Shown piece after piece: positions 15,155 through 47,949 of a DNA stretch of 49,249 nt. The DNA lies in the NCBI GenBank assembly GCA_035603615.1, contig DATNKC010000446.1, positions 1 to 49,249 on the forward strand, given 5' to 3'. This DNA comes from Steroidobacteraceae bacterium. Lineage in GTDB: Bacteria; Pseudomonadota; Gammaproteobacteria; Steroidobacterales; Steroidobacteraceae. The stretch's first letter is position 1. Each line of letters opens with the position of its first letter. Below the pieces are notes generated by a model that ran no database searches, was not told the origin of the DNA, and saw only the letters and a program-made list of their open reading frames with translations. The position numbers were made by a program, and so were the translations under genes.

Positions 15155-16423
15155 TCAAACCGCCGCCGTCGCCCGGTCTGCCACTTCTGTCAACAGTGTC
15201 CTCCAGCTTGCCAGCGCGAGCTTCGTCGAAAAGCACGAACACAGCAGTGCGCGCGCGGCCAGCCCCATCGCGGCAAGCTGATCTCTGTCGCCTTCCAGAG
15301 TTCTTATCGCTTCAGCGAGCGCTTCCGAGTTGCCGGGAGCGATCACCAGCCCGCAATGGGCGGCGCGAATCACCCGTGACAATTCGCCGTCTCGATCGCC
15401 GATAAACAGCACCGCACGGCCGGCGGCCAGAATGCCATAGAATTTACTGGGCACGATCAGCCCTTCCAGAGAGGGAATCAGGCTGACCAGATGCAGGTCT
15501 GCCGCCGCGAGACTATCTTCCAACTCCGCGCGCGGCTGATAGGGAAGGAAGCGAAGATTAGGCATGCCGCGCAGCTCAGCTTCCGATTGCAGGGCGGCCA
15601 TATTGGCTCCCGCACCAATGAATAAGAACACGAAACGCGGGTCCGACTGCAAGGCCTCGGCGGCGCCGAGAATGGTGTCGTATTCATGCGCACGCCCTAA
15701 ATTCCCCGAATAGCCGATCACGAATTTGTCGGTCAATCCCAGACGCGACCGCAGCGAGCTGTCGCGGATGGATTTTGCGCGAATCAAGTCGGGGTCCGCC
15801 GAATTCTCGATGATCTTGCACTTGGATTTGGGCACGCCGCGAGTTCCGAGGTACTCGAGCATTCGGCTGCCCAGTACCACGTTGGCTTTGGCGACCCGTA
15901 GCGACGTATCCCGAAGAGTACGCAGGAAGCGTCCAAGAATCGCTGGCAAGGGCATGACTCCCAATTGCGATGCCACCTCGGGAAATATGTCTTGCAGCCA
16001 ATTGATCAGAAAGGCGCCTTTGAGCCGCGCTGCGGCGGCCGCGACTATCGAAATCAGCGGCGGATCCGTTTTCGCGACGACGATATCCGTGCGGCGAAGC
16101 AATCGGATCAGGGCAGCGGCAGACGTTATATAGAAAGACGTGTAGTCCAGTGCGCGACCCAACAAGCGCCGGCGTCCAAACCGCGTAGTCCAGACGCGGT
16201 GTATCACGACTCCACGCGCGTCCTCGCGTGCCGCAAGTCGCGCAATCGGGTTTTCGTAAAGCTGGCGCGAGCACACGATGTGCACTTCGATTCCACCCGC
16301 CGAAAGGCCGATCGCCAGGTCTGTCAATAACTGCGCGGTCGCGGACTCATCTGGGTAGTAGTACCGATTGACGAACACCACCCGCAGTGCGGATTGGGGT
16401 GCGGACTGAATTTCGCTATGCAT
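15155..16423 (-). CDS. Glycosyltransferase family 4 (WcaI-like)
   Basis: The ATG at 16423 (MHSEIQSAP...) is chosen to avoid overlapping the upstream gene. Motifs VVFVNRYYYPDESATAQLLTDLA and ...LVSLIPSLEGLIVPSKFYGILAAGRAVLFIG. Its stop lies only 14 nt from the convergent GT2 stop. Confidence 0.85.
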   Translation of the reverse strand: MHSEIQSAPQSALRVVFVNRYYYPDESATAQLLTDLAIGLSAGGIEVHIVCSRQLYENPIARLAAREDARGVVIHRVWTTRFGRRRLLGRALDYTSFYITSAAALIRLLRRTDIVVAKTDPPLISIVAAAAARLKGAFLINWLQDIFPEVASQLGVMPLPAILGRFLRTLRDTSLRVAKANVVLGSRMLEYLGTRGVPKSKCKIIENSADPDLIRAKSIRDSSLRSRLGLTDKFVIGYSGNLGRAHEYDTILGAAEALQSDPRFVFLFIGAGANMAALQSEAELRGMPNLRFLPYQPRAELEDSLAAADLHLVSLIPSLEGLIVPSKFYGILAAGRAVLFIGDRDGELSRVIRAAHCGLVIAPGNSEALAEAIRTLEGDRDQLAAMGLAARALLCSCFSTKLALASWRTLLTEVADRATAAV

Positions 16424-16439
16424 GATGCGGCGATCTTGC

Positions 16440-17441
16440 TTAGTGGGGATCGCCATACGGGCGTGCCAATGGTTCGCCGATGAATAGCCCCTGGCCTGGC
16501 ATTTCCACACTTTTCCAATACGCCTCGAGCAGCGTATCCCCGCGGAGATAGTGGTTCATAAAAACTGCAGGGTTTGGAAATTTGGTGATCCTGTTGCAGG
16601 GTTCCGATACCGCACCGTAGGAGCCGGTTGCTCCCTGGTTCAGCCACGCCAAGGCCGACATTTGGCTGCCGCCTTGGAGCACGCCTCCGGCCGAAGTCAA
16701 ATGATCGGCGACGGCGCCTGGCCGAAATCCGAGCTTGTCTAGTTCATCGACGCGCGTCGCACCGGTGAAATAGGCCACGATGTCCGACGGCGCCGCGTCA
16801 ACTGGCGTCGTCAACTCTCGCACCCGCAGGCGGCTTGATAGCAGTGTTTTGGTGTCGGGATACTCCACCGCCCTGACATTGCGTATCGCATCCTGGCTCC
16901 GAACCAAGTACATCGTGCCGCCTGGTCGCGAGCCATCGGCCTCGATTCCTCGATCGATCAGTGCACGGGCCATTGCTTCATGCTCGCTGGGCAACAGCAT
17001 GGCGGGCAACCAACCGACCGTGTCTGCGGGCAGCCAACCGTTGTTGTCGAACAATGGATTGCGCGTAGTGTCCGCGCAACCCGGTTCACAGAACCCAGGC
17101 TGAAAGCCCGCTGCCATTGCTGTGGTAATCGACATGCACTCGACGGCATAGGGTTTGGACCAGATCACGAGCAAGGACTGTACATTTGAGGGCAGCACAG
17201 CGAGGACTTGGGTACGCAAACGCGAGAGTTCAGTGCGGTTGATGACGGGAGAATCGGAAACGGACAAACCCACCAGGTTCCCAGGAGGGATATGCCGTTG
17301 TATCGCATAGTATTGTGCGATACGCGCGCTGGCTGGAACGTTGCGGTTGTATATCAGGCCGAGCCGATCTGGCGTTAGACCTTCGGCTCTTGATTCAAAG
17401 GCATATAGCGCCAGGCCCAACAGCAGGACTCGGCGGAACAT
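16440..17441 (-). CDS. Secreted conserved hypothetical protein of the EPS locus (resembles the uncharacterised family annotated TIGR03790-type, from memory)
   Basis: 333 aa. Signal peptide MFRRVLLLGLALYAFESRAEG. The N-terminal LGLIYNRNVPASARIAQYYAIQRHIP pattern is present. Conserved-looking His (VADHLTSAGG) and Cys (GAVSEPC). Gaps to both neighbours are 12-16 nt. Confidence 0.75.
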   Translation of the reverse strand: MFRRVLLLGLALYAFESRAEGLTPDRLGLIYNRNVPASARIAQYYAIQRHIPPGNLVGLSVSDSPVINRTELSRLRTQVLAVLPSNVQSLLVIWSKPYAVECMSITTAMAAGFQPGFCEPGCADTTRNPLFDNNGWLPADTVGWLPAMLLPSEHEAMARALIDRGIEADGSRPGGTMYLVRSQDAIRNVRAVEYPDTKTLLSSRLRVRELTTPVDAAPSDIVAYFTGATRVDELDKLGFRPGAVADHLTSAGGVLQGGSQMSALAWLNQGATGSYGAVSEPCNRITKFPNPAVFMNHYLRGDTLLEAYWKSVEMPGQGLFIGEPLARPYGDPH

Positions 17442-17453
17442 CGGCGTCCTATC

Positions 17454-18332
17454 TTAAGCCGCGCCGTTGTTGGGTATTCCCACAGGGGCCATTCTCAACT
17501 CCATTGCGCTAGACATTGCGGGAAGCGCGACGCCGTTGCCGCGATCCCGAAGCACCTGGGCAATCAAATCAGCATCAATCGTCTTACGGCCATCGGCAAA
17601 TGCATACAGCAACCCGAAATCGCACAGCTGATTCACCAAGCGCGGAATTCCTTTGGTGCGCGCATGCACAAGCTCAATGGCATCCGCCGAGAACAACGCG
17701 GGTGACCCTCCTGCTATCTCGAGCCGATGGCGCACATATGCGAGAGTTTCGGTTCGATCGAGAGGCTTCAAGTGAAAATCGACGGACACGCGTTGCGCGA
17801 ATTGAATCATTTCCGGGTTCGACAGCTTTTCACGCAGCTCCGGCTGACCCACCAAGAGGACTTGTAATATGAGATCCTGTTCAGAATTTACGTTGGATAG
17901 CAGGCGCAGCTCTTCCAACACCTGGAGCGACAAATTTTGCGCTTCATCGATGATGAGGAGCGTACGACGCCCTACAGCGTACTGGCTTACGAACGAATCG
18001 ACCAATGCTGAATATTGCCCGACGTCTGAATTGTCCGCCGGCACGACTCCCAGTGCGGAAAGCGCCCAGCTATGAATGGATTTGAACTGGCCATGGGTGT
18101 GGCTTACGAGTCCGACCACAACTCGATCGCCCAAACCGCGCAGCAGATGCCGCACGAGCATGGTTTTGCCGCAACCGATATCGCCAGTCAACAAAGAAAA
18201 CGCCGCCTGCGATTCCAAACCATATTCGAGCATGGTCATGCCCATGGCGTGCTGGCGCGACGGATAAAGAAATGCCGGATCCGGCGTCAGTGAAAACGGC
18301 TTTGTCCTGAAGCCAAAATGGCGCTCATACAT
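17454..18332 (-). CDS. ExeA-like AAA ATPase, PEP-CTERM/exosortase-locus subfamily
   Basis: 292 aa. MYERHFGFRTKPFSLTPDPAFLY N-terminus. Walker A GDIGCGKTML and Walker B LLIIDEAQ. Confidence 0.9.
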   Translation of the reverse strand: MYERHFGFRTKPFSLTPDPAFLYPSRQHAMGMTMLEYGLESQAAFSLLTGDIGCGKTMLVRHLLRGLGDRVVVGLVSHTHGQFKSIHSWALSALGVVPADNSDVGQYSALVDSFVSQYAVGRRTLLIIDEAQNLSLQVLEELRLLSNVNSEQDLILQVLLVGQPELREKLSNPEMIQFAQRVSVDFHLKPLDRTETLAYVRHRLEIAGGSPALFSADAIELVHARTKGIPRLVNQLCDFGLLYAFADGRKTIDADLIAQVLRDRGNGVALPAMSSAMELRMAPVGIPNNGAA

Positions 18333-18344
18333 GGGGAGAGCGCC

Positions 18345-19163
18345 TCAGTAACCCGCCGGCGCATCGGCGGCACGATTGAGAACTGTCCCGACTAGGGGCG
18401 TCTTATGCAACAACTCAACGGTCCGCACGAGATCTTTGCGCCGCGTGCGCCCCTCAGCGGCCACCACCAACCCGCATTCAACCTGCGGAGCAAACGACAG
18501 GGCATCATCGGTTAACAACACCGGCGGCAGATCAATCACCACGATTCGTTCAGGATAGCGTGCGCGTAACTCGCCGACGATCTCGCGGCTGCGTGGACCC
18601 GAGAGAACTTCCGAAGAGTTGCCGAGCGTCGACCGCGCCGGCATGAGAACAAGCCGGTCGAATCCCTCCGGGTGATAAAGGCAGTCTTCAACGCGAGCGC
18701 GCCCCGTCATAGCATCATCTGCACCGAACTCGGGGGCCAGGCCGAGTCGCGCCCCCACATTCGGATGTTTGAAATCCAGGTCCACCAGCAATACGGTGTG
18801 AGATTGGTCACTAGCCAGGCTTATAGCGAGGTTGATAGCAGTCGTCGTCTTGCCATCGCTCGCGCCCGGGCTGAATATCGCAATCGAACGCCAGCCGTGG
18901 GCATCCATTCGCTGCAATACCTGAGTACGCAACATCCGAAATGCGACCGCCGCCGGATCCGTGGACGCCGGATTGATGATCCGGTTGTCTTCGAGAACGC
19001 CGGCAGACGGAGTAAACACGCGAGTCCGTGAATAGACGATGGAGGCTGGCGATCCGTTGGCCGCGGGTACGGCGTCGAATTCGGTCACCGCCGCCGTAGA
19101 TGCAGCCTCATGGTGTACCCGCTCCAATCGCGCCAGATCCAACGCCTTGCGAATTCGATCCAT
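18345..19163 (-). CDS. BY-kinase-like P-loop ATPase (exopolysaccharide/PEP-CTERM locus tyrosine autokinase type)
   Basis: 272 aa. Walker A SPGASDGKTT, A' VLLVDLDFKHP and B IVVIDLPPV. It lies immediately downstream of the chain-length determinant (3-nt gap). Confidence 0.85.
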   Translation of the reverse strand: MDRIRKALDLARLERVHHEAASTAAVTEFDAVPAANGSPASIVYSRTRVFTPSAGVLEDNRIINPASTDPAAVAFRMLRTQVLQRMDAHGWRSIAIFSPGASDGKTTTAINLAISLASDQSHTVLLVDLDFKHPNVGARLGLAPEFGADDAMTGRARVEDCLYHPEGFDRLVLMPARSTLGNSSEVLSGPRSREIVGELRARYPERIVVIDLPPVLLTDDALSFAPQVECGLVVAAEGRTRRKDLVRTVELLHKTPLVGTVLNRAADAPAGY

Positions 19164-19166
19164 GAC

Positions 19167-20924
19167 CTATACGCCAAATCGCCGCAATAAGCTCAGCCAA
19201 ACCACGTCCAAGGGTTTGACGAAGAGATGTAGTGTAAGTGCCGCCAAAGCGACGACCGCAATGCTGCCGCCCCACGAGAACCCGACCAATCTCCTGCGAC
19301 GCACGCGGTCGGCGGCTGTGACGATGATAGGAATTGATGCAAGCGCCGGTACGCGCAGCATGAGATGGATGTCGCCGGGTCCGCGCACTGAAGCGTCGAG
19401 CGAGTCCCTGGCAACGGCCGCGCCGACTCCCGCGACAATGGCAATGAACAGCCCGGCAATTAAAATGAGCATTCGATTGGGCTTAATGGGCTTTTCCGGA
19501 GGTTGCGGCGGTTCGATGAGAGTGAAGCGCTCGCCCTTTTTTTCCGTCTCGAGATTCGCCGACACTTGCGCTTCGGTTTGTTTGGAGAGAATTTCCTGGT
19601 ACTTGGACTGCGCGCTCTCCAGGTCGCGTGCCATCGTTCGATATTGCCGCTCGACTTCCGGCGACTCCGCCATACGCTTCTCATACTGGTCAAGCTTGGC
19701 ATGCAAGTCATCGCGTTTTTTGATGGCATTGACCCGCTCGACGGCGACGGAGTCGAGCTGGCCTTTGACCTGAATGTACACCGGATTGTCCGCATGCGCG
19801 GCTTCCGTGCGTTTGGTTCCAACATCCGCTTCCTTTGCCACAGACTCCTCGAGACTGTCGATGCTGCGCTTCAAGCGCATGACGTCGGGATGATCATCGG
19901 AATACTTGTCTTTCGCCGCCGCCAACTGAGATTTCGCCTCGGAGAGTTGCCGTAATCGCTCCGCCGTCTGGTCTTCCGCCTTGACTTCCTTTTCCAAGCC
20001 GTCGACCTCGCGTTGCGTGCTCATGATATCGGGGTGCCCCGGAGCGTAACGTGCCTTGTAACTTGCGAGCTGGGATTTCAACGTCTTGAGGCGATCCTCA
20101 GGTCCAAACACTCGTTGCCCGCTATCGGTAAATACCTGCGTATTGGGGCTGATCTGCGCAAGCTGCGCCTCGAGAAGCACACGCTGAGAATCCAAGGAAC
20201 TGAGGCGATTTTCCGCATCGCGCAACTCCATCTCGGTCCGCTCCATCGACGTGACATTGAGCTGAGCAAGCTCGGGCAGCTCGTCGTGATGCTTCTCTTT
20301 GAAGGCCGCAAGATCTTTGTCCAACTCGGCGATGCGCGTCGCTTCGCGCGTCGATTGTTCGGTGAAGAACGTCGAGGTCTGCTCAGACAGCTGCGTACGC
20401 GACGTCAGATTTTCACTGAGATATAGCGATGTGAGTTCATTGGCGACCTTCAACGCCAACTCAGGAGAGCGGTTCTGATAGGACACGGCGAAGGCGATCG
20501 TCGCCTGCGTCGGGCGGCCGCTGCGCGGATCAATGACATCGGCGCTGATCATTTGCATGCCGATATCGTTCCTGAATCTCTGCAGCAGCACCTCGCGCGG
20601 CTCTTTCTGGCGGATCTCGGGATACAGGCCATAGCGCTCGATTAAGGACAGGAGGTTTTGCGTCGTCATGACCCGCTGGCTGATCACCTGTACTCGCTGG
20701 TCGGCGAAGGAAGTGATCACCGAACGCACCATGTCTTGCGGAATCTCCTGCTGTTCAATCAGGATGGTGCCCATCGCGCGATACGTTGGGGGCAAAAGGA
20801 GTGCAATGGCCAGCGCGACGACTGCCGCCAAGCCGGCCACGATCACAAAAATCGCGCGCTGACGCCAATACGACAAGAATTTTTCGCGCATATCGATCGA
20901 GACTTTTTCGGTCGGCGTATTCAT
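19167..20924 (-). CDS. Polysaccharide chain-length determinant (Wzz/GumC-like PCP)
   Basis: 585 aa. N-terminal TM segment followed by the PPTYRA motif. A long coiled-coil periplasmic region and C-terminal TM segments. Confidence 0.9.
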   Translation of the reverse strand: MNTPTEKVSIDMREKFLSYWRQRAIFVIVAGLAAVVALAIALLLPPTYRAMGTILIEQQEIPQDMVRSVITSFADQRVQVISQRVMTTQNLLSLIERYGLYPEIRQKEPREVLLQRFRNDIGMQMISADVIDPRSGRPTQATIAFAVSYQNRSPELALKVANELTSLYLSENLTSRTQLSEQTSTFFTEQSTREATRIAELDKDLAAFKEKHHDELPELAQLNVTSMERTEMELRDAENRLSSLDSQRVLLEAQLAQISPNTQVFTDSGQRVFGPEDRLKTLKSQLASYKARYAPGHPDIMSTQREVDGLEKEVKAEDQTAERLRQLSEAKSQLAAAKDKYSDDHPDVMRLKRSIDSLEESVAKEADVGTKRTEAAHADNPVYIQVKGQLDSVAVERVNAIKKRDDLHAKLDQYEKRMAESPEVERQYRTMARDLESAQSKYQEILSKQTEAQVSANLETEKKGERFTLIEPPQPPEKPIKPNRMLILIAGLFIAIVAGVGAAVARDSLDASVRGPGDIHLMLRVPALASIPIIVTAADRVRRRRLVGFSWGGSIAVVALAALTLHLFVKPLDVVWLSLLRRFGV

Positions 20925-20930
20925 GGTTGC

Positions 20931-22148: not shown

Positions 22149-22726
22149 GGCACGACAACCGTGTCACCATTCCTCAAGAGGATATTTTGAGACAACCTGC
22201 GCCCATGCTCGATATCACCGTAGCGGAAAGGAATCGAAATTTCGCGATCCCCTTCGCGCCGCAAAATGCGGATGGCATTGGTGTTTGCGAATGGCGTCGA
22301 GCCCCCCGCGAGGGTCAGCGCCTGCACTACATCGATCGGCCCAATGAGAGGAAAGTCGCCGGGACGGGTTACCTTGCCAATGACGTAAATTCGATTGCCG
22401 CCGGCCGCCTTCACGCTCACGGTCACGACCGCGTCCGGTATGAATTTGCGAATTTTCGTTTCGAGCATCGAGGTAAGCTCCGCGACGGTATGCCCCGCGG
22501 CCGGCAATTCCCCCGCCAGGGCAAACGATATGCCGCCGTCGGGGCGCACCAGCACCTCGCCCTGTAAATCAGTTTCCTTCCAAACCGATATCACCAGCAT
22601 ATCCCCAGCGCGCAATTTGTAGCCATCCGGGGATACGGCCGCAGGTTCATCGGCCGCGAAGGCCAGTCCGCAGAAGACGAACAGAACTACAGCCAGACAA
22701 CTGAGCAGACTACGTGGCGATACCAC
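22145..22726 (-). CDS. Short outer-membrane polysaccharide export (OPX/Wza-like) protein
   Basis: 193 aa with a GTG start and a signal peptide. Poly_export/PES region YKLRAGDMLVISVW...GEVLVRPDGGISFALAGELPAAGHTVAEL plus one SLBB-like domain. There is no C-terminal amphipathic helix. Confidence 0.9.
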   Translation of the reverse strand: MVSPRSLLSCLAVVLFVFCGLAFAADEPAAVSPDGYKLRAGDMLVISVWKETDLQGEVLVRPDGGISFALAGELPAAGHTVAELTSMLETKIRKFIPDAVVTVSVKAAGGNRIYVIGKVTRPGDFPLIGPIDVVQALTLAGGSTPFANTNAIRILRREGDREISIPFRYGDIEHGRRLSQNILLRNGDTVVVP

Positions 22727-22820
22727 AATCCTTCACGCCTTACAGCCCTTCAAGGAACGAGAAGTCTAGGCACGGGATATGTGAGTTTCATTGCAACAAA
22801 CTACATTTCGGCGGTCGGCG

Positions 22821-23309: not shown

Positions 23310-23345
23310 GATTTTCCCCTTCTCTCGATCAAATGAGCTAAATCG

Positions 23346-26401: not shown

Positions 26402-26483
26402 CGATCGCTAGAGTCAATCCCGCGCGCGCGAGTTTGCCAGCCGCGCGGTGACAACTTTGTGACAGGCGGCTTCGAACGAGCCC

Positions 26484-28367: not shown

Positions 28368-28375
28368 GGCCGGCC

Positions 28376-29026: not shown

Positions 29027-29037
29027 TGTCGTCCCTC

Positions 29038-30657: not shown

Positions 30658-30703
30658 GATAGAAACTCCCTCCGGGCTTTTTTTGAATCGGAAACGAAAA
30701 TTT

Positions 30704-42700: not shown

Positions 42701-43950
42701 TCCATCGGCAGCGTGGCATCGCTGCCGGATAAATCGATATCGGTTCCGGCATCGATGCGAATTCGCGCCTGCGAATTACCGCCGGATTGCAGGCCCGCGC
42801 TAGGATCGGCAAGCGCGGTCACGGTGAGATTGCCGCCGGGCGCGTGGATGGAGCCACCCTGCATCAAGACCTGTTGGGCGGTGATGGTAATGGCCGATGG
42901 CAGCTGAACTTGTGCGTCGACGGCCGTGGCGGTATCGGCGTATTCCGGCAATATCTCGATGCCGCTATCGGGCCCTATGGTGATTTGCCCACCGACTGTG
43001 GCGGTGAGCGGATTGGACGCGACTGACGGCTTGTCGGCCGCCTCGAGAGTGACCGAGCCATTGGCGGACACGCTGGTCGTCGCTGAAATGCGCCCGTCTT
43101 GATTGATCATCAGCCCGGTCAACGTGACATTGCCGCGCGGGGCCGACAAATCGCCCGTGGCTTCATTGGTCACGCCCATCAATTGGCTGGCGGCCGAAGT
43201 TCCTCCGTCAACCTGTACGATCAAGCCTCGAACGGACGGATCCTGGCTGGCCTGCAAGTAAATGTTCTGCCCGGCGGCCAAAACGATTTGACCATCGGGC
43301 GCGGTCAAGGTGCCGGCGTTATCGACAGTAGGAGCGGCCAGCAAGAGCCGTCCGCCGCTAGAGGCCGTCAATTGCGCGCCATTTTGCACCGTGATACTGC
43401 CGGTATTGGTGAGCTTGGCGCCAAAATCATCCGAGAAATGCTGCGGATTGCCAGTGAACTGTTCAAGCGCCGGCAGTCCGTTCACCAATGGTGAAAGAAC
43501 GCCGCTGTTGAAGGTGCTGTCGGTGAGATTGAGCGACGAGGCAATCAAGCCCGCGACATTCACCGTTGAGGTGGCGCCGAATAGAAAGCCGTTGGCATTG
43601 ATCAGATAGATCTGACCATTGGCGCTTAGCGCGCCGAAAATGCTGCTGGGATTGGCATCGTAGATGCGATTGAGCGCCACCGAGGTGCTGGACGGCTGCT
43701 GGAAAACCACTTTGCCGTCGCCGCTGATATTGAATGAAGCCCAATTCAGCGTCGCATTGTTGCTGGTCTGAGTCACGGCAAGGGTCTTGCCGGATTGAAC
43801 CGCGGTTGCGGCACCCGAGGTCACGAAGACATTGTTGTTTGCGCAGGCGCCAGGCGCGCAAGGAATTGGCAATTGCGTAGCGGCAAAAGCGATGCCGCCG
43901 ATACCGAGACCGATCGCCGGGAGAAGGACCGCCTGCCCGAGCCTGCTCAT
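33709..43950 (-). CDS. Giant two-partner-secretion exoprotein (TpsA, filamentous haemagglutinin family), about 3,413 aa
   Basis: The start is taken at ATG 43950 (MSRLGQAVLLPAIGLGIGGIAFA signal peptide). The track TTG at 44001 and an ATG at 43980 are alternatives. The TPS secretion domain is NATLNWASFNISGDGKVVFQQP...ALNRIY...SANGQIYLINANGFLFG. It is followed by thousands of residues of G/A/T/S/N-rich beta-helix repeats. The C-terminal region (FFNELLLSGR..., GGNILIWSDEGSIDAGNGSK, GSGIRT) is like the DUF3739-type FHA C-terminus. Confidence 0.95.
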   Translation of the reverse strand: MSRLGQAVLLPAIGLGIGGIAFAATQLPIPCAPGACANNNVFVTSGAATAVQSGKTLAVTQTSNNATLNWASFNISGDGKVVFQQPSSTSVALNRIYDANPSSIFGALSANGQIYLINANGFLFGATSTVNVAGLIASSLNLTDSTFNSGVLSPLVNGLPALEQFTGNPQHFSDDFGAKLTNTGSITVQNGAQLTASSGGRLLLAAPTVDNAGTLTAPDGQIVLAAGQNIYLQASQDPSVRGLIVQVDGGTSAASQLMGVTNEATGDLSAPRGNVTLTGLMINQDGRISATTSVSANGSVTLEAADKPSVASNPLTATVGGQITIGPDSGIEILPEYADTATAVDAQVQLPSAITITAQQVLMQGGSIHAPGGNLTVTALADPSAGLQSGGNSQARIRIDAGTDIDLSGSDATLPMDANLVTVQLRSNEFSGDPTQRNGALRGDTVTVDVRADGGAGTPIADVSSAIAAVGRTVAQRTEAGGTATFLSEGDIVFNPGATINVSGGATTYLGGSIQTTQLVGANGQLYDIGSANPLLTYTGVVNPTLTQSFDKWGVQEIVPTPGLSHYESGYQQGAAAGVVQFAAPNLVLNGSLQASAVYGPYQRGPFGAAATLGGTLIIGTPKSTGNVNVDGQADYFAPPITVTANPTPIVVADTVPLPPQMLQLPATYLTSDGFTNTQIYTNTSFQLPAKLPLQLPAGSSLLVQGSRIDIDSNITDLGGSLSFQSELTIADQNPLAAPTLGTGYPRLGIGVGDGVTLNVSGLWTNDSVLAGGIGSGPTLQNGGSINLQLTLPGSELVLGDNVALKADGGAWLQSNGSLIYGHGGSITLDASPSQSAVQFGQGLAIEAFGVYTAAGGSFALLAPRIDVSQGTGTAWTEAQSVDDLDGQGQMLNVYAPLFSTYGFSNISLTATGAVQSATDDVLTVQGSAAGTAGATINAQTLSLQLEPGYQTRVSGGTVAGFSQAVMLPADLRPTTNVSLNVLRLADDIQLGSTGYGALDIQPGAAIVGDPGAAISIAGEGDIFIGGSLKAPGGTVSIVLTSPTLFNDNTATTLDPGYVAGLGISLAPTAVIDVSGGNAILTPNDQGLLLGTVKAGGSVDINAQRGTVVLDAGSSINFSGSSATLDVASPGAGYSREVVATPGGSLTVSSQESIELLGNIQGKAGVGTGGAAAAGTLEIDLARLAGDSILGQPDPNGEPLQIALVGTAAASPTPPVVDLATIGVSEIANSGIDSLILNAGGIAPGLISLQTNQPLALNRSVILETQTLSVADGVTAGIAAPYVQIGNPLTLLSNDITQPVPTPGAGNLVVAANQLTLLGNLTLQGIGNTTLTSQGDVQLQGTIGSQAGVETGSLLTAGNLTIQAARVYPDTFTSFTIQASGAGAAGSNTSVNIDQVMINGQPAPSPGPPLSAGGSVTIVADNIEVGGTLLAPFGEIALSANNSLTLSNGSLVSVSGADLTVPFGQTQENGAQWIYQTPSGQTPITATPGKQVSLTAPNVTVQSNATVDLRGGGDLYAYEWVPGTGGLTDALAGSGPQSTPGLYAILPAARGQAAPFDPQESGGFNPTQTVYLSGGAGVAPGYYALLPPRYALAPGALLIQIEPSYSSATGGQIGSLADGTPVVAGYLSSIGTALHTGSTVYEGFAVYPGSYGQQLATYNISSASTYFGAVAALAGTGPVAEPADAGTLSLSVVQGSNALLGNSLNLQGNVQTAAATGGRGALINISAPNLEVTNGGAATTPDFVAVSGSVLQSWNASALTLGGATDGSSISVAANSVLVDSGVNLTADQIFVVAQASIDLNGALASTSGKNGTTLATLPPTEVITLSNPGAALVAVSDVGLPVVARSGNGAGAAITLESGSSLSSGGALALDAPGNVILNGTINGKGASWSLASNSVAFVGSGTSPDTLNIDSGLLTSLQAAGAVRISSQGNIDLYAPVTLGAGASTGAPTLSSLTLLGTQINNAVDADSVFGAANLTLGGVSPAASGTTVSTPAVGSGTLSFVANNLNLASNSMGISGFAGTVAQIAGTVSSAAGSSSGLNVAGDLTINAVELTPGAGSQTTINASGLLTLGAPTAPAKGTTATTLVGGSLTLNANAIFDQGAIAAPSGLVFMNAGGGDLELGSSGSINVAGTLLQAVNQQAPSPGGMIALTASGNVTLDAGSMLSVAGEQQAPAGSLTIVGGQVVSLAGTLSGAAGSGGAGGNFTLDAGQLAGGLTPLASMLASGGFSNAVNVRARSGDLQLQNGGVIDANSITLTADTGAVEIAGVLSAQSGAQRGLIDLSAGTAVRLDASGQLHADGTGTTELGGEIELNSTCAACSITLAPGSVITTAGTNQMGQLILRAPAVGGTDVAVNVGSTGIGADVSRVGQVVVDAVTTLQTTSGTVNADLANAIGSASNFLTNASPGIAARLSTGSTPLSVQAGVELQDANIEALTLQGLTDLSTYSDPAYYGSSQAPQVINVSVRAAGSININGTFSDGFITDPTGNTNLLALSSLPSASFSFVAGADVSSANALSVLRGSSANLTLMSSTRAADGSTDGVGPSVVRTGTGDINLAAAGDVVFAAAGGGGAAVYTAGYAPANVLGPVSFDNGALIQNFGSNGGNVRVSAGGDVVGSPVGVSFSKSDGGNYSVSGWQLHQGSAGIPAQYGIDYGAFDWNVGALGGGDVTVTAGSNVTNLSAATADSLVSGANTLDGNAAMYGAGGGLSITAGGDIGSAQLFVADGVGTVIAGGGLIPIRTSTRIGATGGLPVGSSIALDNSQISVWARNGVQIDAIYNPTLVAQVNGALDSTLLGGFLTYGPAAAVNLSSTSGAVTIELNPSTNGPMGTLLGTAEVVRGGVTSLLVAPPNLGVQALQGDIIVSGGPNLAPASDGQLSLFAAQDIAAGTTGSNNQITLSDAFLSTIPTAADPSLLGSVIVPFQGVIHSGDPIPALITAGRDIVGVGFSIPKAADIVAGRDIVNLNYAGQNTSASDITLISAGRDLTSAGSGSNQGIQLSGPGSIDVLTGRNLNFGFGNGLVTLGNLVNANLPTSQGANANVLVGYGTQGADLSGFVNQIIAPSTAYQAQLTGYVESLEGTSGLTFAQAESQFAGLSSSQQTALVDNVFFNELLLSGRAANSGTGVGFQQGYNAIDALFPGSRSSTTASPYAGNLTLTTSRIYTDSGGNISILVPGGEVDVGLANPPPTVVAKPASSLGIVAQGAGNVDIYTQGDVNVNQSRVFTLGGGNILIWSDEGSIDAGNGSKSSLSVPPPTVSVNQQGVVTLNFAGSLATGSGIRTIQTNPSIPAGDVDLDAPVGTVDAGDAGIGAAGNINIAAAHVIGVDNINFGGTATGVPSDLSNLSASLSGVSAVAAGATTSSTSSVAETNAAKETVPLAQAALSWLDVFVTGLGEENCKQDDIECLKRQRSAAP

Positions 43951-44027: not shown

Positions 44028-45638
44028 TCAGAAACTGCCGCGCGCAATAAACAAAACGCGCGAGTCGCCCGCGTGCGTGACGCTGGCGCTATCCATTGCC
44101 CTCGCCCACGTCGCGCTCGCCGTGAATTTTTGTCCCGGCAGGATATCCATGCCGAATCCCCAGCTGCGCAGCCTGGCGCTAGCCGGTTCTCCGGGGAGGG
44201 CATCGAATATCGAACCTTTACCGACGTCAAAAAAGCCGTACGCGTCGATGATTATCAGATCGTGTCGATGCAGTCCGGGCGAGATCAGCTGGAGGGTTCC
44301 CTTGATACCCTTGTCCACCAACTCTTCCGCTTCAAGATAGCCACGCACGCCGTCAGCCCCCGCCAATGAGAAATCCTCGTTGGTAATCAAGGGCTCCGTC
44401 GCACCCTGGCCCGCGGCGCGTAGACGCAAGCTGAAATCCTCGGGCAATTTGATGACCGTGACCAGGTCCGCGCGTAAATCGAAATAGTTTGGGCGCCCTT
44501 TGAATCGATCGTTCTCGAATGCCGGCGCATTGTTCACCAAGCCGCGCGGACCGGCGTTGGCCGAAAAGACCAAGGTTGTCACCTGACTGTCCGTGTGCCA
44601 GTAGCCGTTATAGGCAGCCGAGAGATTCAGATACGTGATGGGCGTGTCGAGCGCGGTAGTCGCATCTTGGCTGATGGTATTGCGAAAATGCTTGTAGTCC
44701 ACGCCCACGCTCACCGACTGCAGCGAGGCGGCCGACGTCAGGAGCGAATAAGAGAGCTTCGCGCTGGTGATTTCACCGATACCGAGTACGCCGAGACTGC
44801 CTGCAGTTGCCACATTGCTGTTGGAGTTGATATAGCTCAACGACGGCTGCAGACCCGAATCCCAAGCGTGCGCGACGTAGTTGACCGCAATCACCCGCAC
44901 TTGGTCGAACTGCTGCGGCGTGAATTGGTATTGAAGGGCCAACGTGTCGAAGCGACCAAACAGGTCGTCGTAGTTGAGGCTGACGATCGTACGCAATTCC
45001 TCGGTATCAACGGTCGCTTGGTTATTGAGTTCAACGCTGCCGTGCAGCGGCAGCGTGTCGTTCACCTTGAGCGCCACATCCACGGTCCCGGGGGCCGATC
45101 CGGCCTTGAGGATGGGAACCACTGCGCGATCCGGCGTTTCGCTATTGACGGCGCCGAGTTGCTCCTGCAGCTTTGAAAGCTGCAGCACCGTTCCCGGAGT
45201 GGCCGCGGGCAGCTGTGCGATCACATCGCGTTCAGGAAAATATTTGGCGCCGCTGATGACGGTGCTTTCGATTCGTCCCTCCGTCACCCGCAGCCGGACC
45301 AAACCCTCGCGGACCGTCTGCGGCGGAATGTCGACAAATGCTGTCCCGTAGCCGCGCTGGTGATACAGGTCTTCCAACTGTTTGCGCGCAACTTCGACGT
45401 CTGCGATCGTTTTCTTGGGGCCCAACAACGGGTACAACAACCGCTCTATGTCTCGGCCGGCGAGCACCGTGTTGCCGACCACGCGATACTCCGTGACCTC
45501 GAAACTTTGATCCGACGTGCCCACCCTGACCGGCTCGGGCGGATTGGGCGCTTCCGATGCCGACACAGCGGCTGCCGCCAGTATTAGACAAGACGCAATC
45601 GCTGAGCCCAAGGTCCGGGTAGCGCCCGAGCGAGTCAT
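44028..45638 (-). CDS. TpsB transporter (ShlB/FhaC/HecB family, POTRA + 16-strand barrel)
   Basis: 536 aa with a signal peptide. POTRA region FEVTEYRVVGNTVL...RKQLEDLYHQRGY. Barrel ending ...VLFIARGSF. It lies directly upstream of tpsA. Confidence 0.95.
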   Translation of the reverse strand: MTRSGATRTLGSAIASCLILAAAAVSASEAPNPPEPVRVGTSDQSFEVTEYRVVGNTVLAGRDIERLLYPLLGPKKTIADVEVARKQLEDLYHQRGYGTAFVDIPPQTVREGLVRLRVTEGRIESTVISGAKYFPERDVIAQLPAATPGTVLQLSKLQEQLGAVNSETPDRAVVPILKAGSAPGTVDVALKVNDTLPLHGSVELNNQATVDTEELRTIVSLNYDDLFGRFDTLALQYQFTPQQFDQVRVIAVNYVAHAWDSGLQPSLSYINSNSNVATAGSLGVLGIGEITSAKLSYSLLTSAASLQSVSVGVDYKHFRNTISQDATTALDTPITYLNLSAAYNGYWHTDSQVTTLVFSANAGPRGLVNNAPAFENDRFKGRPNYFDLRADLVTVIKLPEDFSLRLRAAGQGATEPLITNEDFSLAGADGVRGYLEAEELVDKGIKGTLQLISPGLHRHDLIIIDAYGFFDVGKGSIFDALPGEPASARLRSWGFGMDILPGQKFTASATWARAMDSASVTHAGDSRVLFIARGSF

Positions 45639-45683
45639 GAAACCAACAAGCAGGTTGTGCGCAATGGCTGTCCCGAAATAGAA

Positions 45684-45709
45684 CTGGCCTCCCTTTACGG
45701 GGAGGCCAG
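45684..45709 (-). terminator. Probable intrinsic terminator downstream of the PBP-like gene
   Basis: A perfect 10-bp GC-rich stem, CTGGCCTCCC (45684-45693) with GGGAGGCCAG (45700-45709). On the - strand it is followed by TTCTATTT. It lies in the 102-nt gap between the PBP-like stop and the tpsB start. Confidence 0.5.
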
Positions 45710-45740
45710 TGAATCGTCGTTAGTCGTCTTCTTTTGCTGC

Positions 45741-47087
45741 TTATTGCACAGTCGCCGTGTACGTCGGCGCATCGCAGGTCACGCCGTTGCGTGTGAACGG
45801 GTTGACGTATATGGTCGCGGCGCCCAGAGCTGCCACAGTGCTTGCACTGTTGGCAACCACGGAGTGAGCCACGTTTGCTCCAGTGCCCGACGGGACACCC
45901 GGTATTGCCAATACATCGGCCAGATGTGGTGCGGTTGCCTCTGTCTGCAGCGCCGAGGTGATGAAACCCATCACATTGGCGTCCGCCTTGGAAGCAGGAT
46001 TGATGACGAACGTCGCTTCCACCCAAAACGGATAGGCGCCCGTCGCGGCACTCAAGTTGCTCGGCGCGACGCCATTCAGCGTGACCTTTGACACGCCCGT
46101 TGGCGGCGTCTGGTCGATGGTCGCGTACGTGATGGCGCCCTGTGTGGCGCCCACCGCGGTCAGCACATCGCCGGTGGAGAAGAAATCCGTGGCGCCGACC
46201 GCGTCAAACAAGGCACTGCCGCCGGTGGTGCAGACATCGCCCGCAATCAAAAGATCGGTGGCGGTACGGCTGCCCGAACCCTTTTCCCGGTTCACGATGG
46301 TAATGGCAAGTGGCGCGTTGGTCACCGCGTTGCCGTTGACATCGGTCACCAGGCTCCAATTCTTGATCTTGTGCGTGAGGATTTGCTGCACGGTTTGCAC
46401 GCTCAGGTTCAGCGGATTCTCCGTAAAGATGGTCGTGCCTTCGTTCACAAACAGCGCATACACCTCGCCGAAGAGCTGCGTGGCCGCAAGATTCACCAGG
46501 CCCGACGGGTTCACGGGTCCCCAAACAGTGGTCGAATAGGGTGTCGGATAGTTATTGCCGATCAACGCTGCCGGCTCGACATCGGCGATGCCGATGTCCA
46601 CGGTCTCTTTTGCAAGCGTTCCCGCGGGTCCGAATGAGTCATCGACGCCGTTGGTCGAACTGGTTCCGGTCACCGTGATGTTGCAAGGACTCGAGGTGCA
46701 GCCGCCGATGGTGCCCGCCACGAGACTCAGCTGATTGATCTGTTTTGAATTGACAATCGGCAGCATGCCGACGACCGAACCGCCCTCATCGCGGTAAAAA
46801 AAGTTGTAAACGCCCGCATTGATGGGGTTCGCTGCCGCCACCGGGACACAGGAGACCGCAAAAAAATTGGCATTGCCCGAACTATTGAAGATGAACGCGT
46901 TCGCCGCGCCACCGCATACATTTGTCTCCAGAGCACCGAGGACGGCATTCTTGGCCGCGGATGAGCCGGCGATGTAGACGTTATTGGTTGAGGTCTCAAT
47001 TTGCGCCAGGGTCGGCGGAGAGGCGTACGCCGCTCCGGTGCCCAGCACGGCAGCAATCGAAGCTGCCAGGGTCATTGTACGATTCAT
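45741..47087 (-). CDS. Secreted PstS-like (type-2 periplasmic binding protein fold) protein without transporter partners
   Basis: The ATG at 47087 has a GGAG RBS, and the signal peptide is MNRTMTLAASIAAVLGTGAAYA. PBP-like signatures are present: VYIAGSSAAKNA, ...QQILTHKIKNWS... and NREKGSGSRTAT. No permease or ATPase genes lie nearby. Confidence 0.75.
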   Translation of the reverse strand: MNRTMTLAASIAAVLGTGAAYASPPTLAQIETSTNNVYIAGSSAAKNAVLGALETNVCGGAANAFIFNSSGNANFFAVSCVPVAAANPINAGVYNFFYRDEGGSVVGMLPIVNSKQINQLSLVAGTIGGCTSSPCNITVTGTSSTNGVDDSFGPAGTLAKETVDIGIADVEPAALIGNNYPTPYSTTVWGPVNPSGLVNLAATQLFGEVYALFVNEGTTIFTENPLNLSVQTVQQILTHKIKNWSLVTDVNGNAVTNAPLAITIVNREKGSGSRTATDLLIAGDVCTTGGSALFDAVGATDFFSTGDVLTAVGATQGAITYATIDQTPPTGVSKVTLNGVAPSNLSAATGAYPFWVEATFVINPASKADANVMGFITSALQTEATAPHLADVLAIPGVPSGTGANVAHSVVANSASTVAALGAATIYVNPFTRNGVTCDAPTYTATVQ

Positions 47088-47130
47088 GGATAAACTCCAA
47101 ATTAAATGATGGATGCGTTCCCGGGTACCG

Positions 47131-47949
47131 TTAGGCTGCAATTGTCTTGCGGCGGCCGATTCCGAAGAGACCGAGCAGGCCACTGCCCAAGAGCCAGATG
47201 GCAGCAGGCAGCGGAACGGGCGCAGCAGCCGTCGAGAACACCAAGCCGGCAGCCGTCAACGTGACGTTGCCGAGCGCGGTGGTCTTCACCAGATTCGTCG
47301 AGGTCACGGAATCTCCGGTGACGCCGTACAGAGTCGCGCTCGTGCCGAGCCCGTTGACCAGATTGGTGGGTCCATTGGAATACCAATTGGAGGCGTTGGA
47401 AAACAGGATCGTCGGATCCCAACCGGCCGCGCCGCTCGCCGATGTCGCAAAGATATCCGCACTACCGCCAGGACCGCCGGTGACCGGACCGCCAGTGTTG
47501 GTGTTGAGAAGCGTCGCGGTATTTGTCATACCCGTCACCCAGCTACCCAGGTTGCCGCCCTTGCGGCCCGTCAATGTGCCTAAGGTGCTATTGGTGTCGG
47601 TAGTGACGAATTGCAGCGTGTTGGTGGTCTGCTGACCGCCGCCGCCCATGACAGCCCACTGAATCGTGTTGCCGGCTTGCGAACCCAACGCAATCAGGCT
47701 GGCGAGATTCGTGGTTGAGCCGTACAGCGTTTGGCCGTTGGTCAAGTTGCCGGTAACGCCGGTCGCACCATTCACTGTCACCGTGGTGTCGGCCGCAAAG
47801 GCGCCGATGACCGAGCCGCCGGAGATGACGTCGGCAAACAAAAAGACATCGCCGGGATTTGAACTTGAAGGAATCACGGCGCCGGCGTGGGCCGTTACGT
47901 ATCCCATGGCGAGCGCGCTGGCCACACCGATCTTAGCGAGAGTATTCAT
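47131..47949 (-). CDS. PEP-CTERM sorting-domain protein (G/T/N/S-rich)
   Basis: The ATG at 47949 has AGGAG 7 nt upstream; the track start is a TTG two codons earlier. A signal peptide is present. The C-terminus AAPVPLPAAIWLLGSGLLGLFGIGRRK is a textbook PEP-CTERM signal. Confidence 0.9.
   Translation of the reverse strand: MNTLAKIGVASALAMGYVTAHAGAVIPSSSNPGDVFLFADVISGGSVIGAFAADTTVTVNGATGVTGNLTNGQTLYGSTTNLASLIALGSQAGNTIQWAVMGGGGQQTTNTLQFVTTDTNSTLGTLTGRKGGNLGSWVTGMTNTATLLNTNTGGPVTGGPGGSADIFATSASGAAGWDPTILFSNASNWYSNGPTNLVNGLGTSATLYGVTGDSVTSTNLVKTTALGNVTLTAAGLVFSTAAAPVPLPAAIWLLGSGLLGLFGIGRRKTIAA

Follow-up and report, generated by a model that had tools for sequence, protein, structure and literature searches.

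A conserved two-partner secretion and Ton-like motor module beside exopolysaccharide export genes, with Pho-box-like promoters, in Steroidobacteraceae

Introduction

In Pseudomonas aeruginosa PAO1, the genes of a two-partner secretion (TPS) pair, pdtA (TpsA) and pdtB (TpsB), are co-induced by phosphate starvation together with phdA (transposase-like) and the Ton-like genes exbB2, exbD2 and tonB4 (PMC7035377, PMC4971064). PA0696 (putative outer membrane porin), PA0697 (signal-peptide protein), PA0698 (YbjN), PA0699 (PpiC) and PA0701 (LysR) are induced with them (PMC7035377). Induction of the locus requires PhoB and sigma-VreI (PMC7035377, PMC4971064), and its pho boxes were shown by mutagenesis and electrophoretic mobility shift assays (PMC4971064). 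Homologues of the TPS proteins, ExbBD and PA0696 were found by Llamas et al. in 2009 to travel together in Pseudomonas, Burkholderia, Rhodopseudomonas and Janthinobacterium (PMC2729926). Since 2009, the genes exbB2-exbD2-tonB4-PA0696-PA0697 have carried the label of an uncharacterized putative TonB system, the TonB part of the locus is termed still uncharacterized (PMC7035377, PMC4971064), and a DUF2341-LamG appendage on ExbB has been noted in the literature as uncharacterised (PMC12505986). Our literature searches returned nothing relevant that joins exosortase with TPS, nor anything relevant on Porin_5 (PF16930). Here we analyze what appears to be a counterpart of the P. aeruginosa genes in a 49,249-nt contig of a Steroidobacteraceae bacterium (DATNKC010000446.1, positions 1 to 49,249; hereafter, the window), where it lies within a run of 20 minus-strand genes (g01 to g20, 47949 to 15155) that also includes exopolysaccharide (EPS) export genes, PEP-CTERM-type proteins and two putative protein-modifying enzymes.

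A preliminary description of the window had presented the run as a single programme for building an extracellular matrix and its combination of TPS with a Ton-like motor as undescribed. We conclude, with a probability of roughly 0.6, that the run consists of three juxtaposed units, being neither one operon nor one new machine, and that these units probably share Pho-type promoters. Unit A (g03-g09, probably with g02) would be a conserved envelope module and the counterpart of P. aeruginosa pdtA/pdtB-exbB2D2-tonB4-PA0696-PA0697. Unit B (g10-g11) would comprise a cytoplasmic tetratricopeptide repeat (TPR)-GT41 glycosyltransferase and a TPR-sulfotransferase, which vary in copy number and position, and unit C (g12-g20 and the region 4176-15140) a Wza/Wzc-type EPS export locus with PEP-CTERM-type cargo. 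The association of TPS with a Ton-like motor is described, though unexplained; it is not unprecedented because the gene order of the module matches that of PA0691-PA0701, where the co-regulated pdtA/pdtB-exbB2D2-tonB4-PA0696-PA0697 genes have been published (PMC7035377, PMC4971064).

Results

Composition of the envelope module

The first eleven genes of the run and one intergenic element are listed below in the order of transcription, with E values for the family named.

47131-47949, minus strand: g01, secreted Gly/Thr/Ser-rich protein with a C-terminal VPLPA/PEP-CTERM sorting signal
45741-47087, minus strand: g02, secreted PstS-like substrate-binding protein (PBP_like_2, E=8.7e-10)
45683-45710, minus strand: G+C-rich hairpin with a weak T tract in the g02-tpsB gap, 11 pairs, 8 of them G-C
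44028-45638, minus strand: g03, TpsB outer-membrane translocator (POTRA_2, E=1.2e-19; ShlB, E=1.9e-17)
33709-43950, minus strand: g04, giant TpsA exoprotein of 3,413 aa from the ATG at 43950
31785-33605, minus strand: g05, ExbB/TolQ-type proton channel with N-terminal periplasmic DUF2341 and LamG (MotA_ExbB, E=1.1e-24)
31361-31774, minus strand: g06, ExbD/TolR (ExbD, E=3.7e-27)
30704-31351, minus strand: g07, TonB-like protein with an N-terminal transmembrane (TM) segment, a Pro-rich spacer and a C-terminal TonB_2 domain (TonB_2, E=3.9e-8)
29038-30657, minus strand: g08, Porin_5 outer-membrane barrel with an N-terminal helical stalk of ~100 residues (Porin_5, E=1.3e-133)
28376-29026, minus strand: g09, secreted coiled-coil protein of 216 aa (signal peptide and coiled-coil-type Pfam matches only)
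26484-28367, minus strand: g10, cytoplasmic TPR and GT41 (OGT-like) glycosyltransferase (Glyco_transf_41, E=8.4e-85)
24152-26401, minus strand: g11, cytoplasmic SEC-C, TPR and sulfotransferase protein (Sulfotransfer_3, E=4.9e-46; SEC-C, E=2.6e-9)

The TPS pair has the makeup of type Vb secretion, with a TpsB that combines POTRA and a ShlB barrel and an adjoining TpsA, whose gene begins 77 nt downstream of tpsB, that carries a TPS domain (residues 62-317, E=3.6e-21). TpsA is rich in Gly, Ala, Ser and Thr, is modestly enriched in NxS/T sequons (50 observed vs 36.5 expected) and ends in DUF3739 (residues 3244-3354). Its conservation peaks at both ends, the last 30 residues being 73-86% identical among relatives and the core 28-60%. 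Readings of TpsA as a CdiA toxin or a ShlA haemolysin were rejected: TPS and DUF3739 are its only matches, and the C-terminus is its most conserved part. The hallmarks of CdiBAI systems (PT-VENN, a variable C-terminal toxin and an immunity gene) are absent, and exbB comes next after tpsA.

In the motor, the predicted topology of g05 is a signal-like segment followed by ~350 periplasmic residues (DUF2341 and LamG) and three TM segments, and among known structures its channel part is closest to those of TolQ (E=7.5e-15), with ExbB less close. ExbD (g06) is 50-93% identical across all relatives, and the TM segment of g07 spans residues 10-28. An AlphaFold2 model of g08, with a mean predicted local distance difference test (pLDDT) score of 65, predicts ~100 helical N-terminal residues and a barrel of ~16-18 strands; the closest folds are the stalked attachment porin OmpM1 and OmpF/PhoE-type porins. 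Homologues of g09 occupy the equivalent position in Verrucomicrobiota, Klebsiella, Methylosinus and P. fluorescens.

The sole PDB sequence match of g02 is PstS 4exl (E=3.4e-5). Genes for homologous substrate-binding proteins adjoin TPS genes in two related loci (L078 and L079) and on a Methylomagnum plasmid, and an annotated substrate-binding protein gene also adjoins that of TpsA on a Methylosinus plasmid. Neither a TM segment nor a signal peptide is predicted in g10. An HMW1C-type assignment of g10 was rejected: the protein reaches only 22.5 bits with the NGT model, whose cut-off is 1000, and belongs to the GT41 enzymes of the TPR-OGT type. These and the other gene labels of the preliminary description agree with the Pfam and NCBIfam domain calls, except for the barrel g15 discussed below.

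DUF2341 and LamG also occur together in giant proteins of 4,700-7,900 residues (P0121-P0129 and others), which hold 10-21 tandem DUF2341+LamG units.

Conservation of the module across phyla

A protein search that covered 1.84 billion cluster representatives found 1,091 representatives of full-length DUF2341-LamG-ExbB proteins (~600 residues) at E<1e-30. One of these, 37% identical to the window protein, led to 80 loci, all from Verrucomicrobiota. The gene order there is TpsB, LamG-ExbB, ExbD, TonB_2, Porin_5 (E=5e-196), coiled coil and TpsA. TpsB is immediately upstream in 78 of the 80 loci; where both flanks are complete (30 loci), the first six genes are present in 30/30 and TpsA in 27/30, and a PpiC-type peptidyl-prolyl isomerase (PPIase) precedes TpsA in 17/30.

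A search with the window Porin_5 gave only relatives of at least 72% identity, and the distant context came from plasmids and from a search seeded with the Klebsiella protein. An equivalent set of genes, with LamG-ExbB confirmed by Pfam, is present on Klebsiella pneumoniae IncFIB/IncHI1B, Cupriavidus and Methylosinus plasmids. YbjN, PpiC and LysR genes accompany it in five of our loci (L161-L163, L176-L177). Upstream of the Methylosinus copy are genes for a VreA-like protein, a sigma factor of the extracytoplasmic function (ECF) type and FecR, and two glycosyltransferases lie ~8 kb upstream of the module in that record. On the Methylomagnum plasmid, TpsA-TpsB adjoins a PBP_like_2 protein, with phoU close by. 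The Klebsiella Porin_5 search returned many Pseudomonas proteins. In P. fluorescens R124, the order DUF772, TpsB, DUF2341-LamG-ExbB, ExbD, TonB_2, Porin_5, a 209-residue protein, YbjN, PpiC and LysR reproduces the published order of PA0691-PA0701, and the proteins are 28-50% identical to those of the window.

These distant copies bear directly on the model of the preliminary description, in which all 20 genes form one matrix-assembly system whose motor and barrel energise the export or assembly of EPS, PEP-CTERM proteins and fibre. The 80 Verrucomicrobiota loci have the TPS-motor module with no EPS export or GT41 genes detected within 10 kb and one weak TPR-type match, and no EPS export genes are annotated beside the module in the Pseudomonas (P. 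fluorescens), Klebsiella or Cupriavidus copies. Conversely, no motor lies within 10 kb of the EPS block in six other gammaproteobacterial loci. The EPS block would also need no Porin_5, because it has its own OPX (outer-membrane polysaccharide export) protein and candidate barrel. We therefore regard a single 20-gene system as decidedly unlikely, even with the points in its favor that come from Steroidobacteraceae and are given in the next two sections.

Two of the plasmid copies have neighborhoods of their own. On the clinical K. pneumoniae plasmid (L161; NZ_CP065459.1, 1-13800), LamG-ExbB-ExbD-TonB-Porin_5-coil-YbjN-PpiC-LysR is preceded only by a C-terminal TpsA fragment and a frameshifted TpsB, and the Porin_5 protein is closest to those of Serratia (89-95% identity). 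On the Cupriavidus plasmid (L162; NZ_CP017750.1), genes for type II secretion and for a secreted endonuclease of the DNA/RNA non-specific kind lie next to the module, a neighborhood that echoes the Hxc/LapA surroundings of the P. aeruginosa locus.

Linkage to exopolysaccharide export within Steroidobacteraceae

The LamG-ExbB query recovered 77 loci, nearly all from Steroidobacteraceae genomes or metagenome-assembled genomes (MAGs) and including three cultured species, onto which the window proteins were mapped by tblastn. Carriers of the module include Steroidobacter agaridevorans, Peristeroidobacter soli and Steroidobacter flavus. ExbD, TonB, Porin_5 and the coiled coil follow LamG-ExbB in 55 of the 56 loci with enough flank, the exception being a frameshifted contig, and the C-terminus of TpsA is upstream of exbB in 56/64. 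The Porin_5-coil pair is inverted in 7 loci, and in two (L044 and L045) the TPS pair, though still linked, has been relocated to a position beyond the coil gene, downstream of it.

Within a 10-kb flank, at least two EPS export genes are present in 22/50 loci and TPR enzymes in 23/50. The TPR enzymes differ among relatives in number, place and strand, forming arrays of up to four or more genes, and further TPR-GT41 genes are found upstream of g01 homologues. The EPS block stays downstream and in the same orientation despite the rearrangements and despite insertion of 0-13 kb of TPR-enzyme genes. In four long-read genomes, it lies 21.6-24.4 kb downstream, again in the same orientation; these distances come from 12 loci recovered with an anchor in the polysaccharide co-polymerase (PCP) and are too few for statistics, and a TpsB anchor recovered only two loci. 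Motor-EPS linkage was observed within Steroidobacteraceae and in one more distant, Chromatiaceae-labelled MAG (L173, 47% ExbB identity), where ExbB-ExbD-Porin_5 is directly upstream of g12-g13-OPX-PCP.

The single-system model gains from these data, as the adjacency and orientation of the motor and EPS genes persist at 52-80% ExbB identity, through inversions and TPR-array insertions, and L173 has an equivalent pairing. The comparative check proposed in the preliminary description accordingly divides by lineage: the blocks are kept together in Steroidobacteraceae and are unlinked outside it, which that description had named as an argument against its own model, because the module occurs without EPS or TPR genes elsewhere and the EPS block without the motor in the six loci mentioned above. 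The TPS genes, the Ton-like motor and the porin-like barrel do belong together, as it had proposed and as cross-phylum synteny supports, whereas the EPS and TPR blocks are lineage-specific companions.

At the other extreme, the arrangement could be a historical accident, that is, inherited synteny of surface-structure genes whose blocks are not tied to each other in function or regulation. Co-orientation is common in large surface-polymer islands, and the motor-EPS pairing is confined to one family and one MAG. Against this, the linkage outlasts Porin_5 inversions, relocation of the TPS pair and variable TPR arrays, each inverted Porin_5 unit has its own copy of the promoter box, and the promoter blocks of g12 and OPX are conserved (see below); we consider an accident very improbable.

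Two public contigs call for caution. A long-read contig labelled 'delta proteobacterium' (L071, CAVSQF010000035.1) has a Steroidobacteraceae-type cluster, which looks like an assembly error combined with a doubtful label; it was rejected as a distant-lineage copy, being frameshifted and having an ExbD of 88% identity. The only 100%-identical public contig (L001, DATNNI010000229.1, 2 kb) is from a MAG labelled Xanthobacteraceae (Alphaproteobacteria), whereas the other relatives are all Steroidobacteraceae (Gammaproteobacteria), and it is probably mis-binned.

Transcription units and Pho-box-like promoters

In the open reading frame (ORF) list of the window, 20 minus-strand ORFs tile 47955-15155, confirming the uniform orientation reported earlier. 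Recomputed from ORF coordinates, the junctions are 43, 102, 77, 103, 10 and 9 nt from g01 to g07, 46, 11, 8, 82, 254, 36 and 94 nt from g07 to g14, and -4 (ATGA), 6, 3, 12, 12 and 16 nt from g14 to g20, all 19 identical to the lengths given in the preliminary description when its starts are used (g01 ATG 47949, g02 47087, g04 43950, g06 31774, g09 29026, g12 23897, g20 16423). Base composition is even along the run (0.57-0.65 G+C), with tpsA the highest. Twenty co-oriented genes would have a probability of ~2e-6 if orientations were independent; co-orientation alone is weak functional evidence, because orientation in bacterial surface-polymer loci is not independent. The hairpin at 45683-45710, singled out earlier as the one convincing terminator, is indeed the top terminator-like site; it lies 45 nt from the tpsB start and is probably a partial terminator or attenuator. 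No comparable minus-strand intergenic terminator-like site was found in 14500-30500. With the hairpin, a gap of 254 nt and one or more strong promoters inside it, the run is not one operon. It probably divides into the transcription units g01-g02, from which attenuated transcription would continue into tpsB-tpsA, and g05-g10, g11, g12-g13 and g14-g20.

The promoter elements of the run are as follows, with 10 nt separating each box or block from the hexamer where one is given.

33650-33683, minus strand: Pho-box-like promoter of the motor operon, CTGTAACACAACCATCAC, 10 nt, GACAAT, in the 103-nt tpsA-exbB gap
26448-26465, minus strand: Pho-box-like element CTGTCACAAAGTTGTCAC in the 82-nt gap upstream of g11
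23926-23970, minus strand: promoter block upstream of g12, TCGTCAT-GTAA-GTGCCAT-TCTC-ACGACAC, 10 nt, TACGAT
22763-22796, minus strand: promoter upstream of OPX (g14), TGCAATGAAACTCACAT, 10 nt, TAGACT
48091-48124, minus strand: candidate promoter upstream of g01, three 11-bp-phased repeats TGTGAG-CAAAG-GTTCAC-AATTC-TCTCAC

The strongest case is the element upstream of exbB. Fifty-four sites in this position yield the consensus CTGT[C/A]A[C/T]AAAA-NN-ATCAC-N10-NA[C/T]AAT, in which two 7-bp direct repeats, 11 bp apart, precede the -10 hexamer by 10 bp. The consensus agrees at 15/18 positions with the E. coli Pho box, which we take to be CTGTCATAWAWCTGTCAY. Such a layout corresponds to a Pho box in place of the -35 element, in the part of PMC4971064 that cites Blanco 2002 and Makino 1986. 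With the position weight matrix (PWM) built from these sites, the window element scores 36.2 bits vs a shuffle maximum of 19.1, and a scan of 1.27 Mb of related loci gave 67 matches vs 0-1 in shuffles. None of the 67 falls inside mapped coding sequence. Fifty-six are upstream of exbB, a count that is circular because the matrix was built from those sites; the inverted Porin_5 units provide sites independent of the matrix, and 7/7 of them have their own box. Of the remaining matches, 2 are upstream of OPX, 1 is upstream of a TPR enzyme gene and 1 is unmapped. In the window, the six best full-matrix matches are all intergenic.

The other elements share the phased architecture. The g11 box (16.5 bits) is the second best in the window and has a poor -10 element. 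The g12 block is near-invariant in 11-12 related loci (MAFFT alignment). Upstream of OPX, 12 loci of the closest clade share TGCAATGAAACTC[T/A]CA[C/T], 10 nt, TA[A/G]ACT, and more distant loci, including L173, have clear TGTCAC-type boxes there (CTGTCACAAA-type), the box of L173 being a strong Pho-type one. The repeats upstream of g01, which have a low PWM score, are conserved at the g01 homologues of L078 and L079 and are suggestive of a promoter. The 11-bp-phased boxes at four other promoters suggest one regulon, short of proof. Boxes of similar architecture at g01, exbB, g11, g12 and OPX, together with those upstream of OPX in distant loci, also speak for the single-system model, and they give its idea of one matrix programme some regulatory support in this lineage, if not as one operon.

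Two other promoter classes were considered. Control of the rpoN type, suggested earlier, was rejected: no sigma-54 consensus (TGGCAC-N5-TTGCW) is present on the coding strand, and the only two matches, at one mismatch, are on the plus strand and at chance level. A generic sigma-70 scan of the intergenic gaps gave nothing useful. In the Verrucomicrobiota loci, Pho-type boxes are only sporadic, with one upstream of tpsB in L147.

A few further observations concern the same regions. A 13-bit match of box and -10 element on the plus strand at 45632-45665 overlaps the tpsB start, antisense to g02, and may be due to chance. Weak box-like matches occur at 10072-10144, in the divergent promoter region between the flippase and glycosyltransferase (GT) genes, and at 11238-11271, upstream of the AsnB-type amidotransferase gene. 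Upstream of g01, window positions 48249-49111 hold two more minus-strand ORFs, for a 189-residue membrane-anchored Pro-rich protein and a 91-residue protein, neither of which has a family match; if they are real genes, the co-oriented run extends to 22 genes.

Possible functions of the module and its regulation

In the module as we picture it, TpsB/TpsA would export a fibre of ~3,400 residues. A motor driven by the proton-motive force (pmf) would comprise the ExbB/TolQ-like channel with its periplasmic DUF2341-LamG head, ExbD and the TonB-like transducer, accompanied by Porin_5, a barrel of the porin fold whose helical stalk would lie in the periplasm, and by the secreted coiled-coil protein. 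We infer the contacts between these proteins, the substrates of the modifying enzymes and phosphate control in this organism from domain content, synteny and promoter conservation, which were observed directly.

Action of the motor on the TPS pathway itself, via TonB, the coiled coil and the stalked porin, comes close to an even bet; its task would be to thread the giant fibre, anchor it or release it, using the highly conserved C-terminal DUF3739 end of the fibre. This possibility is raised because the motor genes lie between tpsB and tpsA in most lineages, because the module is accompanied by a periplasmic PPIase and YbjN, and because the C-terminal end of TpsA is its most constrained part. 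The prodomain of FhaB stays periplasmic and the PPIase Par27 chaperones FHA, which make such handling of a fibre plausible.

The canonical job of a TonB system is outer-membrane import, and the same components can be arranged accordingly. As an answer to what the motor does, Hxu-like capture and import of phosphorus, favored because of the Pho control and the PstS-like neighbor, is possible yet rather unlikely. Extended to the module as a whole by the logic of HxuABC, the secreted TpsA fibre would capture an extracellular phosphorus source, the TonB-like motor would open the stalked Porin_5 for import, and the PstS-like protein would receive the ligand in the periplasm. The motor promoter is of the Pho-box type, a PstS-like gene adjoins TPS genes in at least two lineages (Steroidobacteraceae and Methylomagnum) and an annotated substrate-binding protein gene in Methylosinus, phoU adjoins the Methylomagnum copy, and an extracellular nuclease and type II secretion system adjoin the Cupriavidus copy. 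In Pseudomonas, the corresponding genes depend on PhoB and share their regulation with the alkaline phosphatase LapA and its Hxc secretion system (PMC7035377). Porin_5, however, has the fold of a general porin, with neither a plug nor a TonB-dependent-receptor domain; the periplasmic LamG head of the stator and the conserved PpiC and YbjN partners are foreign to known importers; and the Verrucomicrobiota and Pseudomonas versions have no PstS-like gene. We consider phosphorus scavenging an unlikely account of the module.

To return to the three-unit reading, a Pho-box-type promoter would drive the motor operon, and a regulator of the PhoB/OmpR family probably activates the whole cluster, with phosphate limitation the likeliest trigger; joint activation is drawn from the weaker boxes of the same architecture at g01, g11, g12 and g14. 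For the GT41 enzyme and the sulfotransferase of unit B, the probable substrates are TpsA or the CTERM proteins, modified ahead of Sec export. Cytoplasmic modification before export has precedents in HMW1C and Aah.

Several points weigh against parts of this picture. The boxes at g01, g11, g12 and g14 score poorly with the exbB-derived matrix and, resting on architecture and conservation, could be over-read; no box was found in the 102 nt that precede tpsB, and no PWM match at threshold in the 77 nt that precede tpsA. The Pho-box reading comes from resemblance to the E. coli consensus and from the P. aeruginosa analogy, and the boxes upstream of exbB would suit another OmpR-family regulator equally well. 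The model of g08 is only moderately confident (pLDDT 65). The link to P. aeruginosa runs through P. fluorescens and gene order. Finally, transposon mutants of P. aeruginosa in tonB4, PA0696, tpsA and tpsB had no phenotype in one assay, zebrafish lethality (PMC2729926).

The exopolysaccharide export block and the window edges

The genes of the EPS block and its continuation are listed below.

23346-23897, minus strand: g12, small ribbon-helix-helix (RHH)-like putative regulator heading the block (weak RHH_1 match, E=0.008)
22821-23309, minus strand: g13, small PEP-CTERM protein (21.0 bits vs cut-off 20.7)
22145-22726, minus strand: g14, OPX (Poly_export and SLBB)
20931-22148, minus strand: g15, putative barrel
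19167-20924, minus strand: g16, PCP (Wzz and GNVR)
18345-19163, minus strand: g17, bacterial tyrosine kinase (BY-kinase)-like ATPase (P-loop)
17454-18332, minus strand: g18, AAA_22 ATPase
16440-17441, minus strand: g19, TIGR03790 protein
15155-16423, minus strand: g20, GT4
4176-15140, both strands: continuation of the EPS locus beyond the run

The OPX, PCP and P-loop BY-kinase genes (g14, g16 and g17) make up the core of a Wza/Wzc-type export system. Homologues of g12 at the equivalent position in relatives are 40-81% identical. The g15 protein has no family match, so that 'barrel' describes a putative assignment, and PDB sequence searches with g08, g12 and g15 returned nothing significant. 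The continuation encodes GT2, GT4, an AsnB-type amidotransferase, two Glyco_trans_1_2 proteins, an HfsF-like flippase, an FkbM methyltransferase and an 874-aa secreted protein. The flippase candidate (8764-10050) has a weak HfsF match only, and family scans of the window ORFs identified no polymerase in the EPS locus.

The locus had been described as XrtA-type, which is not borne out by its contents. No exosortase family match was found among the scanned ORFs of the 49-kb window, although one may be elsewhere in the genome. The best NCBIfam matches of g14-g20 are XrtA-system families, and all of these hidden Markov models except TIGR03790 score under their curated cut-offs (PCP 275.6 vs 278.85; ATPase 277.4 vs 324.5; Tyr kinase 134.8 vs 230.65; OPX 120.9 vs 180), as does the amidotransferase (527.6 vs 816.9). 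The cargo sorting signals on g13 and g01 pass their cut-offs, both marginally; g01 scores 28.7 bits with VPLPA-CTERM (cut-off 25.35) and, with Pfam PEP-CTERM, 17.8, under the cut-off of 20.7.

At the far end, the last gene of the EPS locus (4176-6800, minus strand) encodes the 874-residue secreted protein, which has a Cys-rich C-terminus and no Pfam or NCBIfam match. A type II RES-Xre toxin-antitoxin pair lies at the far edge of the locus (2509-3511, minus strand), with the RES toxin gene (2509-2961; RES, E=1.3e-28) directly downstream of the Xre/ParS-type antitoxin gene (2981-3511).

Discussion

The P. aeruginosa genes exbB2-exbD2-tonB4-PA0696-PA0697 appear to belong to a seven-to-eight-gene module conserved across phyla, whose stator has a periplasmic LamG head and whose predicted outer-membrane partner is a stalked porin rather than a TonB-dependent receptor. 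A vague annotation thereby gives way to testable hypotheses: energised handling of a giant TPS fibre, or fibre-assisted capture of phosphorus. Steroidobacteraceae have coupled the module to matrix genes. A matrix of fibre, EPS and PEP-CTERM proteins may answer phosphate limitation in the environmental members of this family, which would have a bearing on aggregate formation in soil and peat. The module is also present on a clinical Klebsiella pneumoniae IncFIB/IncHI1B plasmid.

In its boldest form, our proposal would unite TpsB, LamG-ExbB, ExbD, TonB, the stalked Porin_5, the coiled coil (often with PpiC) and a DUF3739-ended TpsA in one unrecognised pmf-energised envelope machine, found from Verrucomicrobiota to Pseudomonadota, whose motor works on a type Vb fibre and not on nutrient import; in Steroidobacteraceae, Pho-type promoters would wire this machine to EPS export and modifying enzymes as a surface remodelling under phosphate limitation. 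We offer this as a tentative synthesis, which taken whole is open to considerable doubt.

Comparison with known systems

Among systems that resemble parts of the run, the XrtA/PEP-CTERM loci (Haft-type EpsH loci and Zoogloea floc clusters) share with the window the order OPX, candidate barrel, PCP, BY-kinase and AAA ATPase, as well as an AsnB-type amidotransferase, GT4 enzymes and PEP-CTERM-type cargo. The window differs in having no exosortase, PrsK, PrsR or PrsT and no sigma-54 consensus, and in its cargo tails, which read VPLP(A/G), g01 passing the VPLPA-CTERM model.

HMW1A/B/C of Haemophilus influenzae comprises a TPS adhesin and a cytoplasmic GT41 glycosyltransferase. It resembles the window, where a GT41 enzyme with no signal peptide is encoded near the TPS pair, and sets a precedent for cytoplasmic glycosylation of a TpsA before export. 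The GT41 gene, however, is not part of the module outside Steroidobacteraceae, and g10 is not of the HMW1C type. In Myxococcus, the Glt/Nfs systems with the AglRQS motor and Exo employ a TolQR-type motor, TonB-like proteins and outer-membrane barrels that act on an adhesin or polysaccharide coat. They are a precedent for work other than import by Ton-like motors, with different component sets; the match of g07 to the AgmX/PglI tail is weak (22 bits, under the cut-off).

With the canonical TonB-ExbB-ExbD and Tol-Pal systems, the window shares a channel of the ExbB/TolQ type, ExbD/TolR and a C-terminal TonB_2 domain that follows a Pro-rich spacer. The canonical partner of TonB is a plugged 22-strand receptor, whereas g08 is modelled as a stalked barrel of the porin fold, and, unlike canonical ExbB, the window protein has a periplasmic DUF2341-LamG head of ~350 residues.

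The closest counterpart is P. aeruginosa PA0690-PA0701, the PUMA3/sigma-VreI regulon, which has a giant TpsA, TpsB, ExbB, ExbD, a TonB-like protein, a putative porin and a small signal-peptide protein (PMC7035377, PMC2729926). The same linked set of TPS pair, motor, porin and small secreted protein is present in the window, the PAO1 locus being compared here by its published order, and the P. fluorescens R124 version of this type has DUF2341+LamG+ExbB and Porin_5 as the window does. The PUMA3 locus needs PhoB and pho boxes (PMC4971064), and the window has what looks, by analogy, like a Pho-box-type promoter. Placement of the box differs: in the window it takes the place of the -35 element, as in sigma-70 Pho promoters, whereas in P. 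aeruginosa it is upstream of an ECF -35 element. Among the scanned window ORFs, there is no vreAIR, ECF sigma factor, YbjN, PpiC, LysR, Hxc or LapA. Unlike in the PUMA3 locus, tpsB-tpsA precede the motor genes in the window, which in turn adds to the shared set a PstS-like gene, the TPR-GT41 enzyme, the sulfotransferase and an entire EPS locus.

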